A stretch of DNA of 64,000 bases from Vannielia litorea (GTDB lineage: Bacteria; Pseudomonadota; Alphaproteobacteria; Rhodobacterales; Rhodobacteraceae): positions 2,944,580 through 3,008,579 of the forward strand of contig NZ_JAHVJR010000001.1 in the NCBI RefSeq assembly GCF_019801175.1, read 5' to 3'. Both the position numbers and the translations under genes were made by a program. Position 1 is the stretch's first letter. The number at the start of each line of letters is the position of its first letter. Below the pieces are notes generated by a model. It was not told the DNA's origin. It worked only from the letters and a program-made list of their open reading frames with translations, and ran no database searches. This document shows positions 29,120-30,686 of this stretch, one piece after another.

Positions 29120-29596
29120 ATGCGCCGCATCCTCATTCTCTCCACCACGGCCCTCACCATGGTCAGCGCCCCAGCCGTGGCCGACCTGTCCAAGCGCGAT
29201 ATCATGCGCATGCACCCCGGCGCCGACCGGATCGTGATCCAGCGCGGCAGTCAGACCACGCGGGTCGATGTCTACCGCGACGGCCAGCGCGAAGTCTTCG
29301 GCTACGACAACCGCTCCGACCGCCGGATCCACCACATGTCCGGGCTGGATGACGACGACGATGATTGGGATGACCACGACGACGATGACGACGATGACGA
29401 TGACGATGACGACGATGATGATGATCGTTACGACGACCGGGATGATGATCGCGATGATGACGACGATCGCGACGACGACCGGGATGATGACGATGACCGG
29501 GACGATGATCGCGACGATGATCGTGATGACGACCGCGACGATGATGATAACGACGACGACGACGACGACGACGACGACGACGACGACGACGATTGA
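29120..29596 (+). CDS. Secreted PepSY-like domain protein with ~90-residue poly-Asp / (RDDD)n C-terminal tail
   Basis: Signal peptide MRRILILSTTALTMVSAPAVA. Compact domain (ADRIVIQRGSQTTRVDVYRDGQREVFGYD). Then D-only and DRDDD periodic sequence to the stop. GGAAAAG Shine-Dalgarno 8 nt upstream of the ATG. Confidence 0.6.
   Translation: MRRILILSTTALTMVSAPAVADLSKRDIMRMHPGADRIVIQRGSQTTRVDVYRDGQREVFGYDNRSDRRIHHMSGLDDDDDDWDDHDDDDDDDDDDDDDDDDRYDDRDDDRDDDDDRDDDRDDDDDRDDDRDDDRDDDRDDDDNDDDDDDDDDDDDDD
29340..29590. repeat. Long (GAC/GAT)n trinucleotide microsatellite with embedded CGN periodicity (coding)
   Basis: About 250 bp of GAY codons in runs (gacgacgatgac...), with periodic CGC/CGG/CGT. A second shorter tract lies at ~29985-30065. 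Confidence 0.85.
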
Positions 29597-29678
29597 TCAC
29601 CCGCGCAATCTCATGCCGAAAGGCCCAAACCCGTCCGGCCCGGTTTTCCGGGTCGGGCGCTTCGCTTAAGCTCTGACC

Positions 29679-30068
29679 ATGACTCGCATCCTCGCGCTCC
29701 TCTGCCTCGTCACCGCCCTCGCCCTGCCCGAGCCCGCGCCGGCCCAGTCGGTGCGCGACCGCGTGGTCTCTCAGCTTGAGGCGCAGGGCTTCGGCAACTT
29801 CCGGATCTCCCGCACCCTGCTGGGCCGGGTGCGGATCGTCGCCATCGGCCGCGGGATGCAGCGCGAGATCGTCTTCAACCCGGCCACCGGCGAGATCCTG
29901 CGCGATCTCTCCCGCCCGATCCGCAAGGGCGTGCAGGGCAGCAACGGCCACGCCTCGGGCGCGAGCAATGATCGCAACGGTGGCGGCGGCGGAGATGACG
30001 ACGACGATGATGACGACGACGACGACGGGGACGATGACCACGATGGGGGCGACGACGATGACGATTGA
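29679..30068 (+). CDS. Secreted PepSY-like domain protein with Gly5-poly-Asp tail (paralogue of the preceding gene)
   Basis: Signal peptide MTRILALLCLVTALALPEPAPAQS. PepSY-like core (RVRIVAIGRGMQREIVFNPATGEILRD). Tail NGGGGGDDDDDDDDDDDGDDDHDGGDDDDD. Confidence 0.6.
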   Translation: MTRILALLCLVTALALPEPAPAQSVRDRVVSQLEAQGFGNFRISRTLLGRVRIVAIGRGMQREIVFNPATGEILRDLSRPIRKGVQGSNGHASGASNDRNGGGGGDDDDDDDDDDDGDDDHDGGDDDDD

Positions 30069-30113
30069 TCCGTCCGGCGCCCTGCCCGCGCCGCCCCGCG
30101 CGGCGGGCCTCCC

Positions 30114-30686
30114 GTGATGCAGGCCAACACCGCCCTCCTCCTCGTCATCCTCGTCGTGCAAACCCTCTGCGCGCTGTTCTTCGTCGGCGAGATCCTGTCC
30201 TCGGTCATCGGCTTCGCCCCCCTCAGCTGGCAGGTGCATGAGTTCATCGAGATCGGCGCCGCGCTGGGGCTCCTTCTCGGCATCCTGCTGGGCGGCATCG
30301 CCCTGCGCCGCACCATGTCGCGCAACGCCGCGCTGGGGCACCAGTTGCACGCCGCCTCCAGCGCCTTCATGGACCTGCTCGAAGAGCGCATCGCCGCCTG
30401 GGGCCTCACCCCGGCCGAGCGCGATGTGGCCATCTTCGCGGTGAAGGGCCTGACCATCCCCGAAATCGCCAGCCTGCGCCAAACCTCCGAGGGCACGGTG
30501 AAGGCCCAAACGGCAGCGATCTATCGTAAAGCCGGCGTCAACGGCCGTCCCCAGCTTCTCTCCCTCTTCATCGAAGAACTGATGGAGAGCGGCATGAACG
30601 AGCGCCTCGCCGCCAGCACCCTCGCCGCCACTCCACCCCCGGCCCGTCCCCAGCCCGCCGAAGCCGCCGAGGCCACCCCGCGATAG
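30114..30686 (+). CDS. Membrane-anchored LuxR/GerE-family transcriptional regulator
   Basis: Two N-terminal TM helices, then a LuxR-type HTH (LTPAERDVAIFAVKGLTIPEIASLRQTSEGTVKAQTAAIYRKAGVNGRPQL). Confidence 0.7.
   Translation: MMQANTALLLVILVVQTLCALFFVGEILSSVIGFAPLSWQVHEFIEIGAALGLLLGILLGGIALRRTMSRNAALGHQLHAASSAFMDLLEERIAAWGLTPAERDVAIFAVKGLTIPEIASLRQTSEGTVKAQTAAIYRKAGVNGRPQLLSLFIEELMESGMNERLAASTLAATPPPARPQPAEAAEATPR

Follow-up and report, generated by a model that had tools for sequence, protein, structure and literature searches.

In a 64-kb stretch of the Vannielia litorea genome (called here the window, by which we mean the whole stretch that was analysed), trpB is followed on the same strand by three genes, g1, g2 and g3, which are predicted to encode two small exported proteins with PepSY-like cores and long poly-aspartate tails and then a membrane-tethered LuxR-type regulator. 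The reading that we favour, with slightly less than even confidence, is that this operon is an envelope-signalling system of the DbfQ/BqsPQ kind, in which periplasmic PepSY co-sensors would act on a one-component LuxR regulator in the membrane. Our confidence is lower for the nature of the signal than for this architecture. The operon is probably autoregulated. Unless another number is given, the comparisons below refer to a set of 80 related loci from other Rhodobacterales.

The GC content of the window is 67%, and the G+C content at third codon positions (GC3) is 0.92 in the core of g1, 0.94 in the core of g2 and 0.89 in g3, compared with 0.89 in trpB and 0.60 in a 512-aa antisense open reading frame (ORF). 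Because these values are like that of trpB and the antisense ORF has a lower one, the plus-strand frames are the coding ones, as had been proposed in a first-pass annotation made from the sequence by a model, and the two adjacent signal-peptide genes and the LuxR regulator with two transmembrane (TM) helices described there were found at the positions listed in Table 1. The likelier start of g3 is the ATG at 30117. Exact-sequence look-ups for g2, g3 and the protein P0001 returned zero records; g2 and g3 match Vannielia litorea proteins. A scan for sigma-70 promoters and terminators gave no useful output, and PADLOC found no defence-system match for g1, g2 or the SPFH protein encoded further downstream, and for g3 a match at the level of the helix-turn-helix (HTH) only.

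As judged from sequence, both g1 and g2 would be extracytoplasmic, as PepSY_2 proteins are, each having an N-terminal signal peptide with an AxA site: this is MRRILILSTTALTMVSAPAVA followed by D in g1 (cleavage between AVA and D) and a peptide ending in PAPA followed by QS in g2 (cleavage between APA and Q). A motif RRxFL, similar to that of the twin-arginine translocation (Tat) pathway, was found in 16/80 genomic and 60/120 database relatives of g2, and the Pfam TAT_signal model matches two g2 relatives. The core that follows has about 55 aa in g1. In g2 the core motif RTLLGR...REIVFNPxTGEILRD is nearly invariant, with 14 invariant core positions, and the aligned homologues are 43-58% identical to the core of the window protein. 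Databases contain at least 173 homologues of this g2 core, 86-175 aa long and from Paracoccaceae wherever the organism is named, and the core was found at 439 genomic loci of GTDB species representatives.

Window g2 scored 16.2-18.4 bits (E 0.002-0.01) against PepSY_2 (PF13670), for which the gathering cutoff is 24.3, and the search of Pfam with window g1 alone gave no PepSY_2 match. At the family level, matches to PepSY_2 at E ≤ 0.01 were obtained for 18 of 35 g1-family cores (best 1.7e-9) and for 10 of 32 g2-family cores (best 5.1e-7). The AlphaFold2 (AF2) model of g2, with a predicted local distance difference test score (pLDDT) of 92.6, presents a helix packed on four beta strands, which is the PepSY_2 fold of one helix on a four-stranded antiparallel sheet. 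These family-level matches and the model agree with the PepSY-like cores proposed in the first-pass annotation. In fold searches YpeB, YpmB and 4hbr were among the best matches, with YpeB the top one in Foldseek; the scores were weak, and none is significant for so small a domain.

The same annotation had described g1 and g2 as paralogues, and this holds when the families are compared as profiles. The ORFs between trpB and g2 in neighbouring loci were used to build a profile of 35 g1-type cores (A2), which hhalign aligned to window g1 with 95.9% probability (E 5e-9) and to the g2-family profile with 99.5% probability (E 1.9e-22). It does not hold for the two proteins compared pairwise: BLASTP of the g1 core against the g2 core returned nothing, and the g2 profile aligned by hhalign to window g1 over the signal peptide only (17.9%). 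We conclude that the two proteins have diverged as paralogues and share a PepSY-like core, the window proteins themselves being below the Pfam threshold. A search with the g1 core among 5.8e9 predicted proteins gave zero matches, g1 itself included, and the same set does contain g2, g3 and the slipin protein of V. litorea. Probably the public annotations of V. litorea lack g1, its low-complexity tail being perhaps the reason.

The third gene had been described as a membrane-tethered LuxR/GerE regulator, and both the Pfam search and the AF2 model point the same way. The protein scored 25.5 bits over residues 98-150 against the GerE HTH family PF00196 (cutoff 23.5), and its model (pLDDT 90) has helices at 2-31 and 38-95 and a four-helix HTH at 99-157. 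The first helix is TM1 and the second one, which is uninterrupted, includes TM2 (about 38-60) and a cytoplasmic stalk; the predicted periplasmic loop is short, about 6-10 residues. Since it combines a DNA-binding domain with two predicted TM helices in one polypeptide, g3 corresponds to a transmembrane transcription regulator (TTR) as defined in PMC10269533, a class for which one such helix is enough. Pfam gave neither Autoind_bind nor Response_reg in g3, where the N-terminal 95 residues are TM hairpin and stalk, so g3 does not have the N-terminal domain of a LuxR quorum-sensing receptor or of a NarL response regulator. Its sequence matches in the PDB, 6jqs and 7ve4, are DNA-binding domains of NarL/FixJ-type response regulators. 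Membership of the NCBIfam LIC13292 family (NF047608) was considered and rejected, with 55.8 bits against a cutoff of 200 and only model positions 87-162, which are stalk and HTH, being matched.

Eleven residues of g3 do not vary in 58 homologues (Q15, F22, I26, G32, P35, W38, E42, A48, G51, L52, G55), and E45 is almost invariant. Because of these 11 invariant hairpin positions (W38 and E42 included) and of the continuous helix 38-95 that runs into the HTH, g3 looks like a sensor, with a hairpin conserved more than a passive anchor would need. The N-terminal 95 residues have relatives in 178 cluster representatives among 1.84e9 proteins. Complete relatives are mostly about 150-230 aa long, consistent with the same architecture, and the distant members that are named are still from Rhodobacterales.

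The order of the genes is also conserved. In 75/80 loci trpB lies upstream on the same strand, and in 75/80 g3 is found directly 3' of g2, with a median gap of 35 bp; for the five loci without a g3 match, g2 is less than about 500 bp from the contig end in four and the contig of the remaining one (L054) is short. A gene of the g1 type was found in 64/80 loci, where these ORFs sit in the 650-1100 bp between trpB and g2 and share one design, with about 55 aa of core between a signal peptide and an acidic tail. The unit is [g1]-g2-g3, a core synteny across Rhodobacterales in which g1 is a divergent and dispensable first paralogue. This tight synteny, conserved in 75/80 loci, supports a functional link between the three genes. 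The first-pass annotation had read the trio as accessory genes inserted between trpB and the tRNAs; this is ruled out by the conserved order trpB-g1-g2-g3, the variable and mobile neighbour being instead the unit formed by the tRNA-like elements and the SPFH gene. On the other side, a conserved regulated gene 3' of g3 was sought in the loci and was not found; the genes there differ between loci (Pth, beta-lactamase-like, DUF2237), and most of them are encoded on the other strand.

A distant relative of g3 from Antarctic seawater (32% identity) has a single acid-tailed PepSY gene directly upstream. This distant pair, found in the Antarctic marine metagenome loci L081 (2267-5069) and L082, lies between SIP/FAD_binding_9 genes and a ferric-reductase gene, which encodes a 436-aa Ferric_reduct/FAD_binding_8 membrane protein. 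Since the pair is kept in this wholly different neighbourhood, the acid-tailed PepSY protein and the TM-LuxR protein appear to be a portable functional unit. The location also suggests that the Antarctic variant is tied to iron reduction.

Between trpB and g1 we found a palindromic element that could be the operator of the operon. A GGTTTAGGCC-like motif has nine matches in the window versus 2.2 expected, five of them within the trpB-g1 spacer, and TAAAC-N4-GTTTA has one exact site in the window. Across the loci, TAAAC-N3-5-GTTTA was present in 61/74, at a median of 144 bp before the first start codon; 62 copies fall within the 21 kb of upstream spacers and a single one within the other 798 kb, an enrichment of about 2,000-fold upstream of the operon. 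A second element, GTTTA-N8-14-TAAAC, is present at about 115 bp in 44/74 loci and is followed by CAATGG. The palindrome stays before g1 when trpB is separated or absent (L039, L079, L073, L066, L051, L080), and in loci without g1 it precedes g2; it travels with the operon and not with trpB. A palindromic site of 14-18 bp is what a LuxR-type dimer would bind, and the palindrome is our candidate for the g3 binding site.

The possibility that the GGTTTAGGCC repeats are the trpB terminator or a repetitive extragenic palindromic (REP) element was rejected, as they have no T-run, are kept with g1 where trpB is lacking and are absent elsewhere. A one-mismatch copy of the palindrome, TAAACGCACGTTAA, is found at 25615-25628, between a divergent, minus-strand, single-domain ORF similar to response regulators (25146-25547) and a transglycosylase-like ORF (25819-26988), and could be there by chance or be a second target site. 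The spacer between g1 and g2 (29597-29678) contains a GC-rich hairpin, CCGGCCCGG-TTTT-CCGGGTCGG, and one copy of the GGTTTGGGCC motif on the minus strand; these elements may form an attenuator inside the operon or a further site for a regulator.

The tail of window g1 has RDDD-type repeats, is 83% Asp and has a longest D run of 16, and the whole protein contains 76 D in 158 aa. The tail of window g2 is, as had been described, G5 followed by an Asp-rich stretch, but the number of about 30 D given for it was somewhat high, 21 D being counted within the final 52 aa. Tails have a median length of 81 aa and 42% D in the 80 g2 proteins, and of 94 aa and 45% D in 64 g1 proteins. The longest pure Asp run is 54 (L009, L014) and the longest run of D and E is 68. 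The commonest C-terminal end is DDD (44/80 g2, 31/64 g1), and D and E make up at least 25% of the tail in 67/80 g2 proteins. Comparison with a near-identical genome (L001, CP051231.1, 98-99% identical) showed length changes only inside the tails, namely in-frame indels of 21 and 24 nt for g1 and of 3 nt for g2. Tail substitutions are mostly synonymous, between GAC and GAT. These in-frame changes and synonymous substitutions argue that the tails are translated and selected for Asp. What is selected in the tails is their composition. They probably bind cations; the first-pass annotation had suggested the binding of divalent cations or of mineral surfaces. In one g2 homologue (P0087) the tail reads TTTMTMMTMTMTTMMMMMMMTMT, which corresponds to the +1 frame of the GAC/GAT Asp tract; this indicates a frameshift inside the tract, either a sequencing error or real slippage, and such tracts are prone to indels.

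Systems of a similar general kind have been described. In Vibrio cholerae the small exported PepSY protein DbfQ binds the periplasmic domain of the kinase DbfS, expression from the dbfQRS promoter is autoregulated and increases with polymyxin B, and neighbourhoods combining PepSY with two-component genes are enriched more than 60-fold (PMC12714742). In P. aeruginosa two PepSY genes (PA2659/PA2658) are found upstream of BqsRS (CarRS), only the sensor-proximal one being predicted to bind (PMC12714742), and BqsRS is reported to respond to Fe2+ and cationic stress (PMC12714742; PMC4358008). As in DbfQ-DbfRS, genes for small single-domain PepSY proteins exported by Sec lie directly upstream of the gene of a membrane transducer, with which they are presumably co-transcribed, g2 being beside g3 in 75/80 loci; the locus is probably autoregulated, and the module is kept in many species. 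The differences are that g3 is a single two-TM LuxR/GerE transducer with essentially no periplasmic domain, and that g1 and g2 have long poly-Asp tails and a PepSY domain of the PF13670 type. No histidine kinase or response regulator gene is conserved at the 80 loci, where the conserved partner is the TM-LuxR protein. The arrangement at BqsRS is similar in its tandem PepSY pair, with a sensor-adjacent binder that parallels the conserved g2 as opposed to the variable and dispensable g1; there, however, the transducer is a two-component one, and the papers on it report no poly-Asp tails.

In ToxR/ToxS, VtrA/VtrC and CadC (PMC10269533, PMC9214523), a DNA-binding protein remains in the inner membrane under the control of a periplasmic partner that has its own gene in the same operon. 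Proteins of the ToxR type have an N-terminal winged HTH, one TM helix, a real periplasmic domain and a partner of a different fold. The order in g3 is the reverse, with the TM hairpin first and the LuxR HTH last, and g3 has no periplasmic domain. UipA and LanP are extracytoplasmic Asp/Glu-rich PepSY proteins that bind metals through these residues (PMC9988556). In these two the carboxylates line folded PepSY domains, whereas in g1 and g2 the charge is in a disordered C-terminal tail. Acidic clusters, such as the PhoQ acidic patch and those of the eukaryotic poly-Asp calcium binders calsequestrin and aspein, act at a membrane surface as low-affinity, high-capacity sensors or buffers of divalent cations or cationic peptides. 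Their similarity to the poly-Asp tails is an analogy of mechanism only, without relation in sequence or fold.

The system would work like a DbfQRS/BqsPQRS or a ToxR/ToxS module and is a member of neither. The first-pass annotation had not recognised the combination as a known module, and this is correct for the exact combination, but the general kind is known from DbfQ-DbfRS and from the PepSY genes at BqsRS (PMC12714742). Literature searches combining PepSY, LuxR, poly-aspartate and Rhodobacterales found nothing specific, and we found no description in the literature of the pairing of PepSY with a one-component LuxR protein, of the systematic poly-Asp tails or of the operator.

Following these comparisons, the system that we favour would work as follows. 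Both g1 and g2 would be exported to the periplasm by Sec, or by Tat in many relatives, and would be PepSY-type co-sensors of g3, a LuxR-type transcription factor that is tethered to the membrane and itself has hardly any periplasmic domain. The conserved paralogue next to g3, g2, would dock on the periplasmic face of the hairpin (G32-x2-P35-x2-W38-x3-E42-x2-E45), a contact suggested by conserved surfaces on g2 and on the g3 loop, and g1 would be an optional second modulator. The poly-Asp tails would provide the input by multivalent binding of Ca2+ and Mg2+, perhaps also of Fe or other metals, or of cationic peptides or polyamines, and their occupancy would alter the interaction between PepSY and g3, like a PhoQ acidic patch in cis. 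The signal would then pass along the continuous TM2-stalk helix to the HTH, and a g3 dimer would bind the TAAAC-N4-GTTTA inverted repeats upstream, resulting in autoregulation, with presumably other targets too. It is possible, if rather doubtful, that this amounts to a 'co-sensor' class of one-component systems, in which a disordered periplasmic polyanion gauges the activity of divalent cations or polycations (salinity, Ca/Mg, metals, cationic peptides) and reports by intramembrane contact to a DNA-bound membrane regulator without a phosphorelay.

Several observations speak against the favoured reading. No conserved downstream target gene was found at the loci. The periplasmic loop of g3 is short and leaves little surface for docking. 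Some other regulator could be the one that uses the palindrome, which loosely resembles other alphaproteobacterial inverted repeats. Finally, about 13/80 g2 tails have less than 25% D and E and are rich in Gly, Ser and Pro instead, and because of these weakly acidic tails, what matters in the tail may be disorder and spacing and not the binding of cations.

The strongest alternative, which we nevertheless consider unlikely, turns input into output. The poly-Asp PepSY proteins would be what the system regulates, and as polyanions in the periplasm they would buffer or store divalent cations, shield the envelope or attach to surfaces; g3 would sense the state of the membrane or envelope alone, through its TM hairpin, and would do no more than control their expression. 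This would account for an operon that ends after g3 with no other conserved target nearby, for a palindrome placed upstream of g1 or g2, for the extreme capacity of tails with up to 54 consecutive D, and for a TM hairpin that is conserved by itself. However, a core with 14 invariant positions and 43-58% identity is too conserved for a mere tail carrier, known small PepSY proteins beside sensors act on the sensor (PMC12714742), and some of the tails are weakly acidic.

Clearly less probable is a metal sensor, in which the PepSY-LuxR pair would respond to Fe(II)/Fe(III) or to some other metal and govern metal acquisition, with the Asp tails as ligands. The distant pair between the SIP/FAD_binding_9 and Ferric_reduct/FAD_binding_8 genes would fit this, as would the metal binding of UipA and LanP (PMC9988556) and the two PepSY genes upstream of BqsRS, a system reported to sense Fe2+ (PMC12714742). 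The canonical loci, however, have no metal-related neighbours, only one divergent context speaks in favour, and poly-Asp is a ligand of low selectivity.

It is very unlikely that the genes are functionally unrelated and the Asp runs are slippage expansions without a role. Tail length does shift between near-identical strains by indels of repeat units, only the composition of the tails is conserved and not their sequence, and the tail of P0087 (TTTMTMM) is frameshifted. Yet both paralogous families have retained an acidic composition across hundreds of species, the indels are all in frame with mostly synonymous substitutions, and both the order with its 35-bp spacing in 75/80 loci and the pair kept in the relocated variant argue against coincidence. 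Least likely of all is a classical PepSY role, in which g1 and g2 would inhibit or chaperone a protease that is secreted or located in the periplasm. The domain was originally described from protease propeptides and from YpeB (Yeats et al. 2004, as cited in PMC12714742), and YpeB is the top Foldseek match of the g2 fold, but no protease gene is conserved in the neighbourhood and the conserved partner is a transcription factor.

Table 1. Positions of the operon, its candidate control elements and the flanking features within the window.
Feature	Position	Strand	Description
trpB	27720-28949	+	end at 28949; upstream neighbour of g1
Candidate operator/promoter of the operon	28950-29039		trpB-g1 spacer
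Palindrome 1, GGCCTAAAC-CTCG-GTTTAGGCC	TAAAC 28954-28958, GTTTA 28963-28967		extra GTTTAGGCC copies nearby
Palindrome 2, GTTTA-N12-TAAAC	29005-29009, 29022-29026		same spacer
CAATCG box	29034-29039		same spacer
g1	29120-29596	+	158 aa; predicted exported PepSY-like protein, 83-aa poly-Asp/(RDDD)n tail
g2	29679-30068	+	129 aa; predicted exported PepSY-like protein, G5 and Asp-rich tail
g3	30114-30686	+	190 aa; predicted membrane-tethered LuxR/GerE one-component regulator
Conserved non-coding region	30770-31434		5' domain about 30777-30880; conserved blocks to Shine-Dalgarno about 31420
tRNA-like element 1	30889-30962		6-nt anticodon loop, intact acceptor stem, encoded CCA
tRNA-like element 2	30965-31035		canonical loop with UCU, weak acceptor stem
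Slipin/SPFH gene	31434-32567		Band_7, 101 bits; protein identical to WP_222470741.1

Directly 5' of trpB there is an ORF (27078-27626) that by eye we take to resemble an MntP-type manganese efflux protein. Elsewhere it adjoins trpB only in L001, which places it outside the module.

The tRNA-like elements on the other side are also outside the PepSY-LuxR module. They had been noted as degenerate tRNAs next to the trio; two tRNA-like elements are indeed present, but they belong to what looks like a conserved structured RNA of about 650 nt. The whole of the approximately 650 nt upstream of the slipin ORF is conserved non-coding sequence, with an apparent promoter, a 5' three-way junction showing compensatory changes in 15/23 pairs, and further conserved blocks up to the Shine-Dalgarno sequence. 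The slipin gene is present in 5/80 loci, at varied positions and always with one or more tRNA-like genes about 400-550 bp upstream. In 80 metagenomic loci with slipin homologues, 70 of the 74 that have enough upstream sequence contain, on the same strand, either a single tRNA-like gene or an abutting pair (the related loci with this association are L030, L039, L073, L079 and L085-L164). The slipin genes come from Alphaproteobacteria of the orders Rhodobacterales and Hyphomicrobiales, and no conserved protein neighbour of the unit was found among the flanking ORF clusters.

The metagenomic tRNA-like genes have more than 30 different 'anticodons', some of them unused by bacterial tRNAs, the 'Leu', 'Ser' and 'Tyr' versions have no long variable arms, and the first copy often has a loop of 6 or 8 nt. 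Upstream regions that are 85-90% identical differ at two or three of the three anticodon positions. Between the window and L073, in which the slipin is 89% identical, the second tRNA-like element differs only at the anticodon and the first one has a compensatory change in its acceptor stem. A search of Rfam 15 with this RNA gave only tRNA and a sub-threshold YrlA match. Identification of the tRNA-like junction as a Y RNA (YrlA) was rejected, with 25-34 bits against a gathering threshold of 69 and no rsr or rtcB among the flanking ORF clusters, and a literature search for tRNA-like elements with SPFH found no paper. The region looks like a candidate for an undescribed large structured RNA or leader, and it is perhaps a more novel object in the window than the PepSY-LuxR operon.

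Rhodobacterales are dominant marine heterotrophs, and the PepSY-LuxR module is found in hundreds of their species, annotated only as 'hypothetical' or 'HTH regulator'. If the favoured reading is true, the control of membrane sensors by small PepSY proteins, a recently established principle, would no longer be limited to two-component systems and would include one-component transcription factors of the membrane. Poly-aspartate tracts that are among the longest natural ones in exported proteins of bacteria would have a function. The tails are perhaps of practical interest as high-capacity cation binders. There would also be a defined operator, TAAAC-N4-GTTTA, that could be used to map the regulon.

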